A DNA stretch of 64,000 nucleotides from Clostridia bacterium (GTDB lineage Bacteria > Bacillota > Clostridia > Oscillospirales > CAG-272), in the NCBI GenBank assembly GCA_017415485.1, contig JAFQGP010000009.1, positions 9,305 to 73,304 of the forward strand, read 5' to 3'. The number at the start of each line of letters is the position of its first letter. Positions within the stretch are counted from its first letter, which is position 1. Shown here one piece after another: positions 49,817 to 56,559 of the stretch. The notes under the pieces are model-generated. The model did not search any database. It saw only the letters and a list, made by a program, of their open reading frames with translations, and was not told the DNA's origin. The position numbers were made by a program, and so were the translations under genes.

Positions 49817-49840
49817 GATATGGTATGGAGGATTTTATCA

Positions 49841-51652
49841 ATGAAAAAACGACTCTTAACTTTCCTTATTTGTGCAATGCTTTTGCTTTCGTCATGCTCG
49901 GGTGACGTGCTTGACCCGATCATCACGAATGCTCCCGAAGAATTTCCGACTTCCGAGTTGACCGAGGCACCCACCAGCGTGTCGCTCGCGGGATACAAGG
50001 TCGTTCGCCCTTCGCTGGCTTCAAATCAGGTGGTTGATGCGGCAGTCGAACTTAAAAAAGCACTTGACAAAACTATAGAGAATATAACGATCGGCGACGA
50101 TTGGCACAGAGAATCCGAAGAGCTTCCCGCAGAGGCGCTTGAGATCCTTGTCGGTGAAACAAACCGTGCCGAGAGCGTTGAGATGAAAAACGGGCTCCTT
50201 GAAGACGATTTCGCAGTTAAATATTATCCCGAAAGCCGCCGCATCGTCATTCTCGGCGGCAGTGACGAGGCTACGCTCAAGGCGGTCTCATATTTTCTTG
50301 AATTCTGCTTCAAAAACGGTGAGATCGAAAGCTCACTTTCCTTCCTCTCCGCGGGACAGTATGCCGTAACGGAATGTCTCCTCAACGGCACACCTATCGC
50401 GGAGTATTCCCTCGTTCTTCCCGATATTTCTGATGACGACGAGGATTACGCGGCTGAGCTTATCAGTTACACGGTCGCGGAAAAGACGGGCATCAGGCTT
50501 GAAACCGTAAAGAAAGCGGATGCCTCGGGCAAGCAGATACTTATCGGAACTGCCGCGCAGAAGACTCTTGCGGCGTCCGAATATAGCTATGGAACCGACG
50601 GAGGAAGCGTGATCCTTTGCGGCGAGGGCGGACTTGTCGTAAAGGCGGCTCGCACGCTGCTTGACGAGCTCTTCCCGAAGGGAAAGGCAGAGGTCTCGCT
50701 GACTCTCGGCGAGCCCAAAGTGCTGAAATTCGAGCGCGCGACATATCCTGCGCTGACCGACTTCGGCACAAAGCCCATCGCGCTTGCCGATCAGCTTAAT
50801 GCAAGTATCGCGGTCTATGATCTTGCCTCGGGCGAGCCCGTGCTCAAATATGAATTCAAACCGCAGGCATCGAAAGGTTTCTCGCTCAAGGGCTACGGCA
50901 ACCGCGTTGACGAGGCGCGCCTGCGTTACAGTGAAAAATGGGGTACATATATCATACTCTTCACCTCGTCCTCGGGCTATTGCGGGGTCGCATCCTATCC
51001 CGCAGAGGAATGCCTGTGGCAGGCGGAGCTTGGCGGCACCTCTCCCCACTCGATCGAGTATCTGCCTAACGGTATGGTCGCGATCGCTTCGTCGGGAGGC
51101 AACAATATAGAAAACGGATTCATCCGCATTTACTCTGCCGAAAAGAAAAACGACGCAAAATATGCAGAAGCACAGCTGACAAGCGCTCACGCGGTCCTTT
51201 GGGACGAAACGCGCGACGTTCTTTGGGCAATGGGAAACACCGCAGTCGTTGCTTACGAGGTCGGCAATGATCCCTCCGTCCCCTCACTCCGAAAGATCGC
51301 GTCCTACGGCTGCAACGATATGAAGAGCGGCCACGATCTTTCCGCAATTAACGGAAATGAGGATCAGGTATGGGTCGGCGGAAGCTTTGTGCGCATCTTT
51401 GATAAGGCGAAAGGAACGATCACCTCAAATTATCCCGGTTCGGCGCAGATAAGCGCGGGAAGTGTCAAGTGCATCTGTTCCTTCCCTGACGGCGATGCAG
51501 CTTTGACCGTTGCGACGGGCGTATACGCTTCTCACAACACCGACCGCTTCAAGCTGTTCAAATTTGATGGAAATAACGTCACCGAGACCTCTTACGTCTT
51601 CGACGGCAGAGCCTTTTATAAGGCGAGAGCGTGGTTTGCAAATTACAATTAA
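49841..51652 (+). CDS. hypothetical lipoprotein (603 aa), C-terminal beta-propeller-like region
   Basis: ATG at 49841. Lipobox LLLSSCSG. I recognised no enzymatic motif. Confidence 0.7.
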   Translation: MKKRLLTFLICAMLLLSSCSGDVLDPIITNAPEEFPTSELTEAPTSVSLAGYKVVRPSLASNQVVDAAVELKKALDKTIENITIGDDWHRESEELPAEALEILVGETNRAESVEMKNGLLEDDFAVKYYPESRRIVILGGSDEATLKAVSYFLEFCFKNGEIESSLSFLSAGQYAVTECLLNGTPIAEYSLVLPDISDDDEDYAAELISYTVAEKTGIRLETVKKADASGKQILIGTAAQKTLAASEYSYGTDGGSVILCGEGGLVVKAARTLLDELFPKGKAEVSLTLGEPKVLKFERATYPALTDFGTKPIALADQLNASIAVYDLASGEPVLKYEFKPQASKGFSLKGYGNRVDEARLRYSEKWGTYIILFTSSSGYCGVASYPAEECLWQAELGGTSPHSIEYLPNGMVAIASSGGNNIENGFIRIYSAEKKNDAKYAEAQLTSAHAVLWDETRDVLWAMGNTAVVAYEVGNDPSVPSLRKIASYGCNDMKSGHDLSAINGNEDQVWVGGSFVRIFDKAKGTITSNYPGSAQISAGSVKCICSFPDGDAALTVATGVYASHNTDRFKLFKFDGNNVTETSYVFDGRAFYKARAWFANYN

Positions 51653-51682: not shown

Positions 51683-51943
51683 CTATTCGTAATGTCCTTT
51701 GCATTGGATGATCTCTATGCCGCTGTCTGAATATCTGTATACGATCCTGTTGCACTCGTCAATGCGGCGGCTCCAATATCCGCTGAGATCTCCCTTTAAT
51801 GGCTCGGGCTTCCCAAGACCCTCGTGTCCCGAACGGGATATATCCTGCAACAAGAGATTTATCCGTTTCAATGTCTTTTTGTCTTGCGATTGCCAATAAA
51901 GATAATCATTCCACGCATCTTCCGAAAAGATGAAATTACTCAC
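51683..51943 (-). CDS. yoeB: Txe/YoeB family type II toxin (mRNA interferase)
   Basis: FSEDAWNDYLYWQSQDKKTLKRINLLLQDISR..GKPEPLKGDLSGYWSRRIDECNRIVY..GHYE closely parallels E. coli YoeB. Confidence 0.93.
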   Translation of the reverse strand: MSNFIFSEDAWNDYLYWQSQDKKTLKRINLLLQDISRSGHEGLGKPEPLKGDLSGYWSRRIDECNRIVYRYSDSGIEIIQCKGHYE

Positions 51944-52208
51944 TCGCCATTTCCTCGAGTTCCTTCAGCGATCGAACAACAACTTTTCCTTCCTCGATCT
52001 GTTTTGCAGATCTTTGCAATGCTTCTGTGTTGCTTTTTGCATAAAAAGGATCGACGGAAACTTCAAACGGGATTCTTTCCTCGCGGATCATTTTTTTGGC
52101 TAAAATATTGATAGCGATAGACATATTGATTCCAAGCTCGTTGCAAACACGGTCAAATTCTCTTTTAATGTCTTCATCCATTCTGATGTTAACTGTAGAT
52201 TGTGCCAT
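51936..52208 (-). CDS. RelB/DinJ family antitoxin
   Basis: N-terminal ribbon-helix-helix VNIRMDEDIKREFDRVCNELGINMSIAINILAKKM. Overlaps yoeB by 8 nt. Confidence 0.88.
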   Translation of the reverse strand: MAQSTVNIRMDEDIKREFDRVCNELGINMSIAINILAKKMIREERIPFEVSVDPFYAKSNTEALQRSAKQIEEGKVVVRSLKELEEMASE

Positions 52209-52231: not shown

Positions 52232-52260
52232 ATTATATCACATTGTGGGTACAATGTCAA
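52232..52260 (-). promoter_or_regulatory. consensus promoter of the antitoxin-toxin operon with embedded inverted-repeat operator
   Basis: Minus strand: TTGACA (52260-52255), 17-nt spacer, TGaTATAAT (-10 at 52237-52232). The inverted repeat ACATTGT-GGGT-ACAATGT (52240-52257) overlaps the -35 and the spacer. Confidence 0.7.
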
Positions 52261-52314
52261 TACAAAACGTATAATTCTCAATAACAATATTTCCCTTTTT
52301 GAATAGGTAACAAA

Positions 52315-53013
52315 ATGAACATTCAAGGATTCAATAAACTCACACTTCTCGATTACCCTGGGCTGACTGCCTGCACGGTCTTTACGGGCGGATGCGACCT
52401 TCGCTGTCCCTTCTGCCACAATTCGCCGCTCGTTCTCGATCCCCGCGGGACCGAGGGCTACAGCGTCGATGAGGTCCTCGCGCATCTCCGCAAACGCAAG
52501 GGCATCCTTGACGGAATCGCCGTCAGCGGCGGCGAGCCTCTTTTGCAGCCCGATATTGAGGATTTCCTTCGCCGTGTGCGCGACATCGGCGACTATAAGA
52601 TCAAACTTGACACCAACGGCACTCACCCGGAGCGCCTTGCGAGCATCATTTCCGAAGGGCTTTGCGACAAGGTTGCGATGGATATCAAAAACTCGCCCGA
52701 AAAATACTCGCAGACCGTCGGTATCCGTAATTTTGACGTTGAGCTGATCCGCGCATCACTTTCCTTCATTATGCTTTCGGGCATCGACTACGAGCTCCGC
52801 ACCACCCTTGTCCGTGAGCTTCACGACGAGGAATCGATGTACGGAATTGCCGATTTCATCCGCGGCGCAAAGGCTTATTATCTCCAGAATTTTGTCGATT
52901 CGGGCGCGGTCATGTACGGAGGTCTTCACGGATTCGATAGACATGAAATTGAACGTTTCAGGGATATCGTAAAACGTTCCGTCGAGCTCGTCGAGATCCG
53001 AGGAGTTGACTGA
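52315..53013 (+). CDS. nrdG: anaerobic ribonucleoside-triphosphate reductase activating protein
   Basis: GGCDLRCPFCHN radical-SAM motif and GIAVSGGEPL. Confidence 0.92.
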   Translation: MNIQGFNKLTLLDYPGLTACTVFTGGCDLRCPFCHNSPLVLDPRGTEGYSVDEVLAHLRKRKGILDGIAVSGGEPLLQPDIEDFLRRVRDIGDYKIKLDTNGTHPERLASIISEGLCDKVAMDIKNSPEKYSQTVGIRNFDVELIRASLSFIMLSGIDYELRTTLVRELHDEESMYGIADFIRGAKAYYLQNFVDSGAVMYGGLHGFDRHEIERFRDIVKRSVELVEIRGVD

Positions 53014-53047: not shown

Positions 53048-53095
53048 TAACTATATATTGTGCTGATTTTTTAAAATCAGCACAATATCTTGTTA
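53048..53095. promoter_or_regulatory. two NrdR-box-like palindromes, centres 32 bp apart
   Basis: TAACTATATATTGTGC (53048-53063, 13/16 to ACACWATATATWGTGT) and GCACAATATCTTGTTA (53080-53095, 12/16). Confidence 0.5.
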
Positions 53096-53102
53096 TAAGG
53101 TA

Positions 53103-53131
53103 TTGACAAATACTACAAGATGTAGTATAAT
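53103..53131 (+). promoter_or_regulatory. consensus sigma-A promoter for nrdD
   Basis: TTGACA (53103-53108), 17-nt spacer, TATAAT (53126-53131). The spacer holds the palindrome TACTACA-AGA-TGTAGTA. Confidence 0.7.
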
Positions 53132-53193: not shown

Positions 53194-55587
53194 ATGTATC
53201 AGGTAGTAAAAAGAAACGGCAAGACCGTCGAATTCGACATATCTAAAATTTCCAAGGCGATAACGCTTGCATTCGAGGCATGCGACAGAAAATACAACTC
53301 TGACGTGATCGACCTTATCGCTCTTCGCGTCACCTCTCACTTCGAGCCCAAGGTTAAGGGCGACAAGATCGCTGTCGAGGATATCCAGGACAGTGTTGAG
53401 ACTGTTCTCGCACAGGCGGGCTATGAGGACGTTGCAAAGGCATACATCCTCTACCGCCGTCAGCGCGAGAAGCTCCGTAACATGAAGTCCACCATTCTTG
53501 ACTACAAGGCACTCGTTGACTCTTACGTTAAGAGCACCGACTGGCGAGTCAAGGAGAACTCGACCGTAACCTATTCGGTCGGCGGACTCATTCTCTCCAA
53601 CTCGGGCGCCATCACCGCAAACTATTGGCTCTCCGAAATTTATGACGACGAGATCGCTCAGGCGCATCAGAACGCAGATCTCCATCTGCACGACCTCTCG
53701 ATGCTCACCGGATACTGTGCAGGTTGGTCTCTCCGTCAGCTCATCGAGGACGGACTCGGCGGAATCACGGGCAAGATCTCGTCCGCTCCCGCAAAGCATC
53801 TGGCAACCCTCTGCAACCAGATGGTCAACTTCCTCGGTATTATGCAGAACGAATGGGCAGGCGCGCAGGCGTTCTCCTCCTTCGATACCTATCTCGCTCC
53901 CTTCGTAAAGACCGATAACCTCAGCTACGATCAGGTCAAGAAGTGCATCGAGTCCTTTGTTTACGGCGTAAACACCCCCTCCCGTTGGGGTACTCAGGCT
54001 CCCTTCTCGAACATCACCCTTGACTGGGTATGTCCTCCCGATATGATCGACAAGCCCGCGATCGTCGGCGGCAAGGAGCAGGACTTCACCTACGGTGACT
54101 GCAAGAAGGAAATGGATATGGTCAATAAGGCGTTCATCGAGATCATGATCGAGGGCGACGTCAACGGTCGCGGATTCCAGTATCCCATCCCCACCTATTC
54201 GATCACCCGCGATTTTGACTGGTCGGATACCGAAAACAACCGCCTCCTCTTCGAGATGACCTCGAAGTACGGCATTCCCTATTTCTCGAACTATATCAAC
54301 AGCGATATGGAGCCCAGCGACGTTCGTTCGATGTGCTGCCGTCTGCGTCTTGACCTCCGTGAGCTTCGCAAGAAGTCGGGCGGTTACTTCGGAAGCGGCG
54401 AGTCGACAGGTTCCGTCGGCGTTGTTACCATCAATATGCCCCGCCTCGGCTACACCGCCGAGAACGAGGAGGACTTCTACCGTAAGCTCGACAGACTTAT
54501 GGACATCGCCGCTCGTTCGCTCAAGATCAAGCGCGACGTTATCACCAAGCTCCTCAATGAGGGCCTCTATCCCTACACAAAGCGCTACCTCGGCACCTTC
54601 AACAACCACTTCTCCACAATCGGTCTTGTCGGCATGAACGAGGCTTGCCTCAACGCAAGCTGGATCAAGAAGGACCTCACCGATAAGAAGGCGCAGAAGT
54701 TCACTCAGGATGTTCTCAACCATATGCGCGAGCGCCTTTCCGACTATCAGGAAATGTACGGCGACCTCTACAACCTCGAGGCTACCCCCGCAGAGTCGAC
54801 CTCTTACCGTCTTGCAAAGCACGACAAGAAGAGATATCCCGACATCATCACCGCTTCGCAGGGTGAAACTCCTTACTACACCAACTCCTCCCACCTCCCC
54901 GTAAGCTACACCGACGACGTATTCACCGCCCTCGATATTCAGGACGAGCTCCAGACTCTCTATACCTCGGGCACGGTATTCCACACCTTCCTTGGTGAAA
55001 AGCTTCCCGACTGGAAAGCTGCAGCAGCTCTCATCCGCAAGATCGCGGAAAACTATAAGCTTCCTTATTACACTCTTTCTCCCACCTATTCGGTATGCTC
55101 CGAGCACGGATATATCGCAGGCGAGCACTTCTCCTGCCCCAAGTGCGGCAAGGTTACCGAGGTTTACAGCCGTATCACCGGCTACTACCGTCCCGTTCAG
55201 AACTGGAACGACGGTAAGTCGCAGGAGTATAAGGAAAGAGTTGAATACGATCCCGAACAGTCGATGCTTCACTTCGAAGACAGAGGCCACGGAAACGTTA
55301 AAAAGGAGTGCGAGTGTGCTCACGCATCTACCGACGCCGTATACGAGGACGGTCGCGTAGTTCTCTTCGCAACCAAGACCTGCCCCAAGTGCAAGATCGC
55401 AGCTTCTCTCCTTGAAAAGGCGGGCATCGAGTTCGAAAAGGTCTATTTCGAGGATGATCCCGACTTCGCAAAGAAGTATGGAACCCGTCAGGCTCCCACT
55501 CTGCTTTATATCGTAGGCGAGGACTTCACCGCGTTTGCCGATATCGCGGGTGTTAAGGAGTTCATCAAGACCACCGCTCAGGCATAA
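53194..55587 (+). CDS. nrdD: anaerobic (class III) ribonucleoside-triphosphate reductase with a C-terminal thioredoxin/glutaredoxin-like domain
   Basis: ATP-cone N-terminus, Zn ribbon CSEHGY..CPKCG, and glycyl-radical motif SRITGYYRP (Gly codon at 55180-55182). A further ~134 aa follow, including VVLFATKTCPKCKIAASLLEKAGIEFEKV (CPKC at 55381-55392). Confidence 0.95.
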   Translation: MYQVVKRNGKTVEFDISKISKAITLAFEACDRKYNSDVIDLIALRVTSHFEPKVKGDKIAVEDIQDSVETVLAQAGYEDVAKAYILYRRQREKLRNMKSTILDYKALVDSYVKSTDWRVKENSTVTYSVGGLILSNSGAITANYWLSEIYDDEIAQAHQNADLHLHDLSMLTGYCAGWSLRQLIEDGLGGITGKISSAPAKHLATLCNQMVNFLGIMQNEWAGAQAFSSFDTYLAPFVKTDNLSYDQVKKCIESFVYGVNTPSRWGTQAPFSNITLDWVCPPDMIDKPAIVGGKEQDFTYGDCKKEMDMVNKAFIEIMIEGDVNGRGFQYPIPTYSITRDFDWSDTENNRLLFEMTSKYGIPYFSNYINSDMEPSDVRSMCCRLRLDLRELRKKSGGYFGSGESTGSVGVVTINMPRLGYTAENEEDFYRKLDRLMDIAARSLKIKRDVITKLLNEGLYPYTKRYLGTFNNHFSTIGLVGMNEACLNASWIKKDLTDKKAQKFTQDVLNHMRERLSDYQEMYGDLYNLEATPAESTSYRLAKHDKKRYPDIITASQGETPYYTNSSHLPVSYTDDVFTALDIQDELQTLYTSGTVFHTFLGEKLPDWKAAAALIRKIAENYKLPYYTLSPTYSVCSEHGYIAGEHFSCPKCGKVTEVYSRITGYYRPVQNWNDGKSQEYKERVEYDPEQSMLHFEDRGHGNVKKECECAHASTDAVYEDGRVVLFATKTCPKCKIAASLLEKAGIEFEKVYFEDDPDFAKKYGTRQAPTLLYIVGEDFTAFADIAGVKEFIKTTAQA

Positions 55588-55596
55588 ATCAATAAA

Positions 55597-55626
55597 AAGA
55601 TCGGCTGCTTTTGGCAGCCGATCTTC
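55597..55626 (+). terminator. stem-loop between nrdD and trxB (weak terminator or attenuator)
   Basis: GATCGGCTGC-TTTTG-GCAGCCGATC followed by TTCGTT. Confidence 0.4.
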
Positions 55627-55641
55627 GTTAAGAGGAAAATT

Positions 55642-56559
55642 ATGAAAGATATTATTATAATCGGAGCGGGTCCTGCGGGACTTACCGCGGCAATTTACGC
55701 AGTTCGCGCGGGCAAGAGCGTCACCGTTATTGAAAAGTCCACCTTCGGCGGACAGATGACGTTTTCACCCAAGATCGAAAACTATCCCGGTTTTTCCGAG
55801 ATCTCGGGCAACGAGCTTGCCGATAAGATGGTCGAGCAGGCGCTCGGACTCGGCGCGGAGATCGAATGCGCAGAGGTAACCGCTATCGCGTATAACAAAA
55901 AGGAAAAATTCTATACCCTCACCACGCCCGACGGCGATTTCGAGGCAAAGAGCGTCATCATCGCGGTTGGCTCGCACCACCGCAGACTCGGTCTTGAGGG
56001 CGAAGAGGAGCTTGTCGGTCACGGAATTTCCTTCTGCGCCGTTTGCGACGGCGCGTTCTACACGGGCGGCGAGATCGCTGTCATCGGCGGCGGCAACAGC
56101 GCGGCTGTCGAGGCACTCCTGCTTGCAAAGATCGCAAAAAAGCTGACCATCGTGCAGAACCTTCCCGATCTGACCTGCGAGGCGAACACAGCCGCGGAGC
56201 TCAAGTCGATGGAGAATGTCGAGATCATCTATAACACCGTTGTTGAGGAATACGTTTCCGAGGGCGGCGAGCTTACCGGCATCGTCGTCAAGAACACCGA
56301 AACCGGCGATCTCAGCAAGCTCAAGGTTGACGGCATTTTCCTTGCAGTCGGAATGGCTCCCGCAACCGATATTTTCAAGGACATCGCGCCCATCGACCCC
56401 TATGGCTACCTTATCGCGTCGGATGACGGCGATATGGGCTGCGAAGGCGTCTTCGCAGCAGGCGACTGCCGCAAGAAGGGCGTTCGCCAGATCTCAACCG
56501 CAACCTCCGACGGCGCTTGCGCGGCGCTGGCGGCTTGTAAATACGTGGATTCTCTATAA
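55642..56559 (+). CDS. trxB: thioredoxin-disulfide reductase
   Basis: GAGPAGLTAAIYA, redox-active CAVCDG, and GGGNSAVEEA-like NADPH motif. Confidence 0.94.
   Translation: MKDIIIIGAGPAGLTAAIYAVRAGKSVTVIEKSTFGGQMTFSPKIENYPGFSEISGNELADKMVEQALGLGAEIECAEVTAIAYNKKEKFYTLTTPDGDFEAKSVIIAVGSHHRRLGLEGEEELVGHGISFCAVCDGAFYTGGEIAVIGGGNSAAVEALLLAKIAKKLTIVQNLPDLTCEANTAAELKSMENVEIIYNTVVEEYVSEGGELTGIVVKNTETGDLSKLKVDGIFLAVGMAPATDIFKDIAPIDPYGYLIASDDGDMGCEGVFAAGDCRKKGVRQISTATSDGACAALAACKYVDSL

Follow-up and report, generated by a model that had tools for sequence, protein, structure and literature searches.

The 64,000-nt stretch of contig JAFQGP010000009.1 from a Clostridia bacterium of the CAG-272 lineage (the window, to whose positions all coordinates refer) encodes a class III ribonucleotide reductase (RNR), NrdD, that is fused to a small C-terminal redoxin and lies between the gene of its activase and a gene for a TrxB-like flavoprotein disulfide reductase. 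We assign a probability of roughly 0.7 to the reading that this is a thiol-driven class III RNR with a tethered reductant that is recycled by a dedicated flavoprotein. The reading is based on the thiol-type residues of the active site, on the selection for CxxC and cis-proline in a domain found only on NrdD, on a TrxB subfamily encoded only beside the fusion, and on biochemical precedents. According to the accounts given in PMC9669993 and PMC4493059, thioredoxin reduces the NrdD of Neisseria bacilliformis; the NrdD of Thermotoga maritima needs a protein factor above 10 kDa (PMC4493059), and a fused glutaredoxin reduces the class I RNR of Facklamia ignava (PMC6187632). The combination of an NrdD–redoxin fusion and a TrxR-like gene alongside had been proposed in an initial annotation of the same DNA and is borne out by the open reading frame, the Pfam matches, the predicted fold, and the conserved linkage of the genes.

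The fusion gene nrdD::redoxin (53194-55587, plus strand) is a single open frame of 797 aa plus stop. Its identity as nrdD is evident from matches to NF006126 (1145.9 bits, cut-off 548, over residues 1-686) and TIGR02487 (526 bits, cut-off 326). An ATP-cone (residues 3-92, 53200-53469; PF03477, E 4.8e-23) precedes the catalytic core with the glycyl-radical domain (residues 121-685, 53554-55248; PF13597 (NRDD), E 3e-192), all on the plus strand like the parts that follow. The glycyl-radical motif SRITGYYRP occupies residues 659-667, and the glycine placed by the initial annotation at 55180-55182 is indeed Gly663. Ahead of the glycyl-radical loop lies the zinc site C635-x2-H638...C648-x2-C651 (55096-55146). 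A zinc ribbon of the form C-x2-H...C-x2-C is present in most relatives of both the fused and the unfused clade; Cys replaces His in two of them (L043 and L044). Beyond Gly663 the protein continues for 134 residues, the length that had been estimated, whereas unfused relatives stop 2-19 residues past the core alignment. This extension comprises a flexible linker (residues 687-720, ~34 aa; 55252-55353), which is predicted to be disordered and is hypervariable among relatives, and a redoxin domain of the thioredoxin fold (residues 721-797, 76 aa; 55354-55584), which is identified by PF00462, AlphaFold2, and Foldseek.

The Pfam match of the tail to Glutaredoxin (PF00462; NrdD residues 722-762) is weak but above threshold (25.6 bits, cut-off 22.9) and covers 41/60 profile positions. 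Structures were predicted for the redoxin domain, using 35 aligned tails, and for the C-terminal 197 residues (601-797) of the protein. For the former, AlphaFold2 returned a beta-alpha-beta-alpha-beta-beta-alpha arrangement of four strands and three helices with a mean pLDDT of 89.4, which Foldseek aligned with thioredoxins at TM 0.66-0.80. In the longer model, pLDDT is 95-98 at residues 721-796, and the region 692-715 has values below 50 and no secondary structure. The CPKC motif occupies residues 730-733 (55381-55392), and the cis-proline, Pro768 (55495-55497), is located in the sequence QAPTL. Both the CxxC and the cis-proline with its A-P-T motif are invariant in the 35 aligned tails; the CxxC mostly reads CPNC and is CPKC here.

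The nearest solved relatives of the tail profile are the "glutaredoxin-like" protein disulfide oxidoreductases (PDOs) of archaea and Aquifex, in their C-terminal CPYC unit, the 85-aa thioredoxin of Methanocaldococcus (Mj0307-type), and NrdH, but the tail falls below every curated cut-off of the NCBIfam thioredoxin, glutaredoxin, NrdH, and YruB models. As a glutaredoxin it scores 20.9 bits with TIGR02181 (cut-off 90). NrdH-redoxins are marked by the motifs CVQC and WSGFRP; the tail has CPKC, lacks WSGFRP, and reaches 18.6 bits with TIGR02194 (cut-off 85.75). As a thioredoxin it scores 16.5 bits with PF00085 (cut-off 23.5) and 17 bits with TIGR01068 (cut-off 96.8), and its model has four strands and three helices, as against the five-strand fold with an N-terminal beta-alpha unit of thioredoxins. 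Genes for glutathione synthesis were not found in the genome (no match to PF04262 or PF02955), which would fit reduction by a TrxR-type enzyme; here and below, absences hold for the genomes and thresholds searched, the present assembly being 87% complete. Because a thioredoxin fold is predicted, the curated cut-offs are not reached, and genes for glutathione synthesis were not found, the tail is best regarded as a small redoxin with a thioredoxin fold that forms a family of its own, rather than as a curated thioredoxin, glutaredoxin, or NrdH. The initial description of the tail as a redoxin of the thioredoxin fold agrees with the predicted structure and does not extend to membership in any of the three curated families.

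Among 27 fused relatives, the linker measures ~30-70 aa and has no conserved sequence. The linker of the present protein contains the pair Cys706-Glu-Cys708 (55309-55317), and a CxC, CC, or CCC cluster occurs in 9/27 fused relatives (the others being L021, L022, L026, L027, L030, L033, L035, and L040). Such clusters are reminiscent of the two cysteines that act as a shuttle at the C-terminus of class I and class II RNRs.

The distribution of the fusion was surveyed in a sample of 300 genomes from the same class; these genomes are related, and the counts are descriptive rather than statistical tests. The survey of NrdD–redoxin architectures suggested by the initial annotation recovered the redoxin tail in 56/300 genomes (~19%), with one copy each and always within an NrdD frame of ~800 aa; the three exceptions are contig breaks. 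A search of all representatives with the tail mostly returned proteins of 75-140 aa. At least some of these derive from fused genes that are cut off at the end of a contig: P0130 starts within the NrdD core, and the contig of P0125 is only 989 bp long. The whole protein as query separated ~55 genomes with a 66-77% identical match extending to residue ~793 from ~55 genomes with a ~50% identical match ending at ~685. That the fusion might be an artefact of assembly or gene calling, or a decaying read-through, can be regarded as refuted: nothing was found in its favour, the frame is continuous in 56 genomes, which represent at least 25 families, and on 8 viral contigs, the exact protein is present on 5 contigs, and the tail shows no variation in its catalytic motifs.

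In a quick maximum-likelihood tree (IQ-TREE), a branch with an SH-aLRT support of 100% sets the fused proteins apart, with one secondary loss (G110) among them; the topology is compatible with a single origin and one loss of the fusion. The two clades also differ in gene order. In the fused clade, nrdG, nrdD::redoxin, and trxB follow each other in 16/27 loci, and nrdG is located upstream in most loci examined; in the unfused clade, the order is inverted, with nrdD followed by nrdG and no trxB in 12/12 loci. Among the IMG/VR viral contigs recovered with the tail profile, 8/9 carry the fusion. Two viral contigs of ~200 kb encode fused NrdDs of 1172 aa (L073:725-4243) and 1289 aa (L075:377-4246) with in-frame inteins (PF14890 over cut-off); the intein of L073 is inserted at about the position of the finger loop, and neither trxB nor nrdG is present within 4 kb of these two copies.

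The residues of the active site were assigned by alignment with the NrdD of T. maritima (4coi), whose similarity is remote (phmmer E 3e-40). Cys175 (53716-53718, plus strand) pairs with Cys125 of T. maritima and represents the beta-A cysteine; Met380-Cys381-Cys382 (54331-54339, plus strand) of the finger loop SMCCRL pair with the SCCR motif at 328-331 (Cys329/330); and Glu529 (54778-54780, plus strand) pairs with Glu495. The adjacent cysteines of SMCCRL that had been noticed at 54334-54339 are Cys381-Cys382. In the formate-type NrdD of P. copri, Leu stands in place of Glu529. Cys175, Cys381-Cys382, and Glu529 are invariant, and Met380, the zinc site, and Gly663 are conserved, across 40 relatives from both the fused and the unfused clade.

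The alignment with the NrdD subtypes that the initial annotation had recommended thus places the fused protein on the thiol side. The residue set of NrdD2, which consists of the beta-A cysteine, the vicinal pair of finger-loop cysteines, and the active-site glutamate, is complete, whereas the features of NrdD1, a single-cysteine MGCR loop and no active-site glutamate, are not matched by the MCCR loop and Glu529; only the methionine is common to both. Since the three cysteines and the active-site glutamate are literature markers of the thiol-dependent subtype (PMC9669993, PMC4493059, PMC9176816), the fused NrdD is, by its active-site residues, a putative thiol-dependent (NrdD2-like) class III RNR.

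The TrxB-like gene (55642-56559, plus strand; 305 aa) begins 54 nt past the nrdD stop, one nucleotide less than previously stated. Its product has the motif GAGPAG near the N-terminus, the redox-active CAVC at residues 132-135 (56035-56046) within CAVCDG, and GGGNSA at residue 149, but it reads VQNLPDLTCE at the position of HRRxxxR (VQNLP, residues 171-175; 56152-56166), and its score with TIGR01292 (319.5 bits) remains under the TrxR equivalog cut-off of 343.45. The second TrxB of the genome, which is encoded on another contig, has both GGGNSA and HRRDSFR, scores over the TrxR cut-off (352.6 bits), and shares 39% identity with the adjacent enzyme. Among 18 adjacent TrxBs compared, 13 have the Q-N-L form (one of them reads Q-D-L), 4 have HRR, and 1 has neither. 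The nearest solved chain is 7jyp (E 1e-73), which reads VQNLPYLT.

HRRxxxR is an accepted marker of NAD(P)H-type TrxRs, and ferredoxin-dependent flavin thioredoxin reductases (FFTRs) lack both GxGxxA and HRRxxxR (PMC10880999). The adjacent TrxB has kept GGGNSA and lost HRR, and it is much closer to 7jyp than to the FFTR structures 6gna/6gnd (E 3e-34). Because HRRxxxR is absent, NADPH is not established as the donor; the retention of GxGxxA and the distance from the FFTR structures favour a pyridine nucleotide, which is probably the donor but not specifically NADPH. That this nucleotide is NADH would be a guess from the missing motif. The path from NADPH via TrxR and redoxin to NrdD that had originally been envisaged is thus supported by the fusion, the gene linkage, and the thiol-type residues, but its first step, from NADPH to TrxR, is not supported, as the adjacent TrxB lacks HRRxxxR and stays below the cut-off.

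All TrxB homologs in the 300 genomes that share at least 50% identity with the adjacent enzyme (50-56%; 21/21) directly adjoin a fused nrdD, which suggests that it is a dedicated paralog found, at this threshold, only beside the fusion. If weaker homologs are included, an adjacent TrxB is encoded in at least 32/56 fused genomes (~57%); the three-part path is therefore common but not obligatory. In five fused genomes without a neighbouring TrxB, the only TrxBs are ~40% identical and encoded elsewhere.

In the proposed mechanism, NrdG would set the glycyl radical on Gly663, from which it would move to a finger-loop cysteine (Cys381 or Cys382). Each reduction of an NTP would leave a disulfide between Cys175 and the neighbouring finger-loop cysteine, with Glu529 as the putative proton source. 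The CPKC domain, on its disordered tether of ~34 residues, may then swing into the active site of either the same or the partner subunit and reduce the disulfide, and the downstream TrxB-like flavoprotein would re-reduce the CPKC domain. Where the adjacent trxB gene is missing, the housekeeping TrxR probably takes over.

Several observations weigh against a thiol-driven enzyme. The finger loop retains Met380, a residue of the formate mechanism, and reads MCCR rather than SCCR. Identical active-site residues occur in the unfused sister clade, where neither a redoxin nor a TrxB is linked. The genome encodes a true pyruvate formate-lyase (PFL; TIGR01255, 1180.7 bits), and PFL is as common with the fusion (33/56 fused genomes) as in the whole sample (179/301). 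Moreover, ~43% of the fused genomes have no adjacent TrxB, and a strong hairpin is located between nrdD and trxB. The analysis establishes the architecture, the residues, the fold, the conservation, and the gene linkage; every step of electron transfer, the disulfide involved, and the electron donor are deductions. With Met380 kept and PFL encoded, the enzyme may use formate; the simple argument that a lack of formate calls for thiols was rejected, because this genome encodes PFL and the frequency of PFL is the same whether or not a genome has the fusion, and a shortage of formate does not explain the fusion.

Some of these observations also favour a different reading, in which formate is the turnover reductant via Met380 and Cys175, as in the NrdD of E. 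coli, and the redoxin and TrxB serve only in repair or protection: after exposure to oxygen or oxidants, they would hold Cys175, the vicinal pair Cys381-Cys382, or the cysteines of the zinc site in the reduced state, so that the sole RNR could be reactivated. Besides the conserved Met380 and the frequency of PFL, this reading draws on the transient oxygen met by gut anaerobes and on the dispensability of TrxB in 43% of the fused genomes. Burnim et al. (2022) found a Met-first loop in 83% of the double-Cys enzymes, reported that components for either formate or thioredoxin are present in MCCR enzymes, and left the reductant of this majority open (PMC9669993). However, Glu529 and the second cysteine would be idle in formate chemistry but are invariant, the solved formate-type structures lack the glutamate, and repair creates no obvious need for a covalent tether that is kept in single copy in 56/56 genomes; a role in repair alone is unlikely. 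An enzyme with two reductants, using formate when fermentation provides it and the tethered dithiol otherwise, would account for the presence of both residue sets (Met380, and Cys381-Cys382 with Glu529) and for PFL in ~59% of the fused genomes. We know of no characterized class III RNR that uses both reductants, and this reading appears somewhat more improbable still.

The thiol-driven reading gains importance from the genomic setting of the fusion. Only one NrdD and no barrel of a class I or class II RNR were found in the 87%-complete assembly, which also encodes two ordinary thioredoxins. A class I/II barrel is present in 5/56 fused genomes compared with 129/300 overall, and none was found in the other 51/56; the fused NrdD is thus usually the only RNR found in its genomes. 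By a count made by hand, most genomes with an unfused, ~50% identical NrdD do carry a class I or class II RNR. The failure to find a class I/II enzyme in 51/56 fused genomes suggests that many gut anaerobes probably depend on the module to synthesize DNA, and the fused NrdD is probably essential.

The spacer of 180 nt between nrdG and nrdD contains a putative control region (53048-53131, plus strand). It comprises a promoter that agrees with the sigma-70 consensus in 12/12 positions (53103-53131; TTGACA, 17 nt, TATAAT), a palindrome with 15-bp arms ahead of the promoter (53055-53088), and an NrdR-box-like site (53048-53063) with 3 mismatches to the NrdR consensus, of which 0.14 matches are expected per window. 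A gene for NrdR lies in another part of the genome (TIGR00244, 185.6 bits). Together, these elements may represent nrdD's own control region. Further AT-rich palindromes overlap the nrdD promoter and are located 3' of it. Between the nrdD stop and the ribosome-binding site of trxB lies the hairpin already mentioned (55596-55626, plus strand), which has a 13-bp stem (dG -22 kcal/mol, z -5.2) and is not followed by a U-run on the plus strand. It is a candidate RNA stabilizer, partial terminator, or processing site and could set the ratio of nrdD to trxB expression. No riboswitch or other known RNA was detected in the operon (Rfam, E 0.1 or better).

The presence of regulatory elements also bears on the suggestion that the tail is not an electron donor but a redox sensor or regulator, which might gate activation by NrdG or access of the substrate in response to the redox state of thiols. 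A tether would permit docking on several surfaces, and the extra CxC clusters of some linkers would be in line with such a role. However, regulation is already supplied by the ATP-cone and NrdR, and the neighbouring gene for a dedicated disulfide reductase fits catalytic recycling better, which leaves a sensor very improbable.

The activase gene nrdG (52315-53013, plus strand) encodes a radical-SAM protein of 232 aa that matches TIGR02495 (NrdG2; 206.1 bits, cut-off 131) and the Radical_SAM family of Pfam. A RelB-like gene on the minus strand flanks the locus upstream, and genes for an amidase, RecG, and RecX, also on the minus strand, follow downstream; since the flanking genes are unrelated, the unit consists of nrdG, nrdD::redoxin, and trxB. 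The RelB-antitoxin-like gene (51936-52208, minus strand; 90 aa) is divergent from nrdG and has upstream of it (52240-52262) the inverted repeat ACATTGT-GGGT-ACAATGT and, on the minus strand, another promoter that matches the consensus perfectly. A protein of 610 aa encoded at 49820-51652 (plus strand) has DUF6528 as its sole Pfam match (E 2.8e-14, C-terminal half).

Class III RNRs have long been taken as formate-driven, and the thiol-dependent subtype rests on very few characterized enzymes. No other genomic argument available for protein thiols in this branch is as strong as the conserved covalent fusion of a reductant to the enzyme, combined with a reductase that is encoded only next to the fusion. 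A single polypeptide plus NrdG and one flavoprotein would provide a convenient test system. The atypical nucleotide-binding motif of the TrxB raises the question of how reducing power is coupled to replication. A more far-reaching view, in which the only RNR of about one-sixth of the Clostridia species receives its electrons through a private wire that consists of the tethered redoxin plus the VQNL-type flavoprotein and is not driven by NADPH, is conceivable but doubtful. If it were true, thiols rather than formate would drive the large "MCCR plus Glu" majority of class III RNRs; VQNL TrxBs would constitute a new class of cofactor specificity (NADH or a low-potential carrier) dedicated to the synthesis of DNA precursors; and the sporadic CxC clusters of the linkers would shuttle electrons as a dithiol, in the manner of the C-terminal cysteine pair of class I and class II RNRs.

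A comparable arrangement exists in Methanosarcina barkeri, whose NrdD3 is reportedly served by an NrdH-like redoxin and a ferredoxin:disulfide reductase, as described by Wei and colleagues in 2015. In both systems, a class III RNR is served by a small redoxin of glutaredoxin-like character, and the gene of a dedicated, apparently non-NADPH reductase is linked, but the archaeal components are separate proteins and the reductase is reportedly of the Fe-S ferredoxin:thioredoxin-reductase type rather than a flavoprotein. Another parallel is offered by the PDO plus TrxR systems of Pyrococcus, Aquifex, and Thermotoga (PDB 1a8l, 1j08, 2ayt, 2ywm), whose C-terminal CPYC units match the tail profile with E 1e-12 to 5e-11. 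The TrxRs of these systems reduce glutaredoxin-like proteins, and the enzyme of Thermotoga accepts NADH. By contrast with the tail, the PDOs are free-standing 25-kDa proteins of two units, for which no link to RNR is established.

The closest enzymological relatives are the NrdD2 proteins of N. bacilliformis and T. maritima (PDB 4coi/4u3e), which are likewise glycyl-radical NrdDs with a beta-A cysteine, a double-cysteine loop, and a glutamate, and for which, according to the accounts of the work of Wei et al. (2014) in PMC9669993, PMC4493059, and PMC9176816, a protein dithiol is the expected reductant. The present enzyme differs from them in its MCCR loop (versus SCCR) and its remote similarity to T. 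maritima, in having a covalently attached redoxin in place of a free, general thioredoxin, and in a linked reductase without the NADPH motif. A Glutaredoxin::NrdD of the subclass NrdDd is listed for Lachnospiraceae bacterium TWA4 in a single table line (Rozman Grinberg et al. 2018; PMC6187632, Table S1). It is probably the same architecture, with a domain of the glutaredoxin Pfam family fused to NrdD in a member of the Clostridia, but the 2018 paper covers neither the breadth of the fusion (~19% of the sampled species) nor the dedicated TrxB and the residue pattern. Text searches of the literature found no analysis of the Grx::NrdD fusion beyond this line and no description of its breadth, the domain restricted to NrdD, the dedicated non-HRR TrxB, or the near-absence of other RNRs.

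In the Grx::ATP-cone::NrdB of F. ignava, a small redoxin with a CxxC motif is joined to one component of the RNR and has been shown biochemically to be the reductant of that RNR (PMC6187632). In contrast to the class III fusion, it belongs to a class I enzyme, is fused at the N-terminus of the radical-generating subunit, and is a genuine glutathione-dependent glutaredoxin that acts on the C-terminal cysteine pair of NrdA rather than on a class III active site (PMC6187632). Redoxin-dependent class III RNRs are already known as a kind, and the fused form is a common variant that is predictable from known parts.

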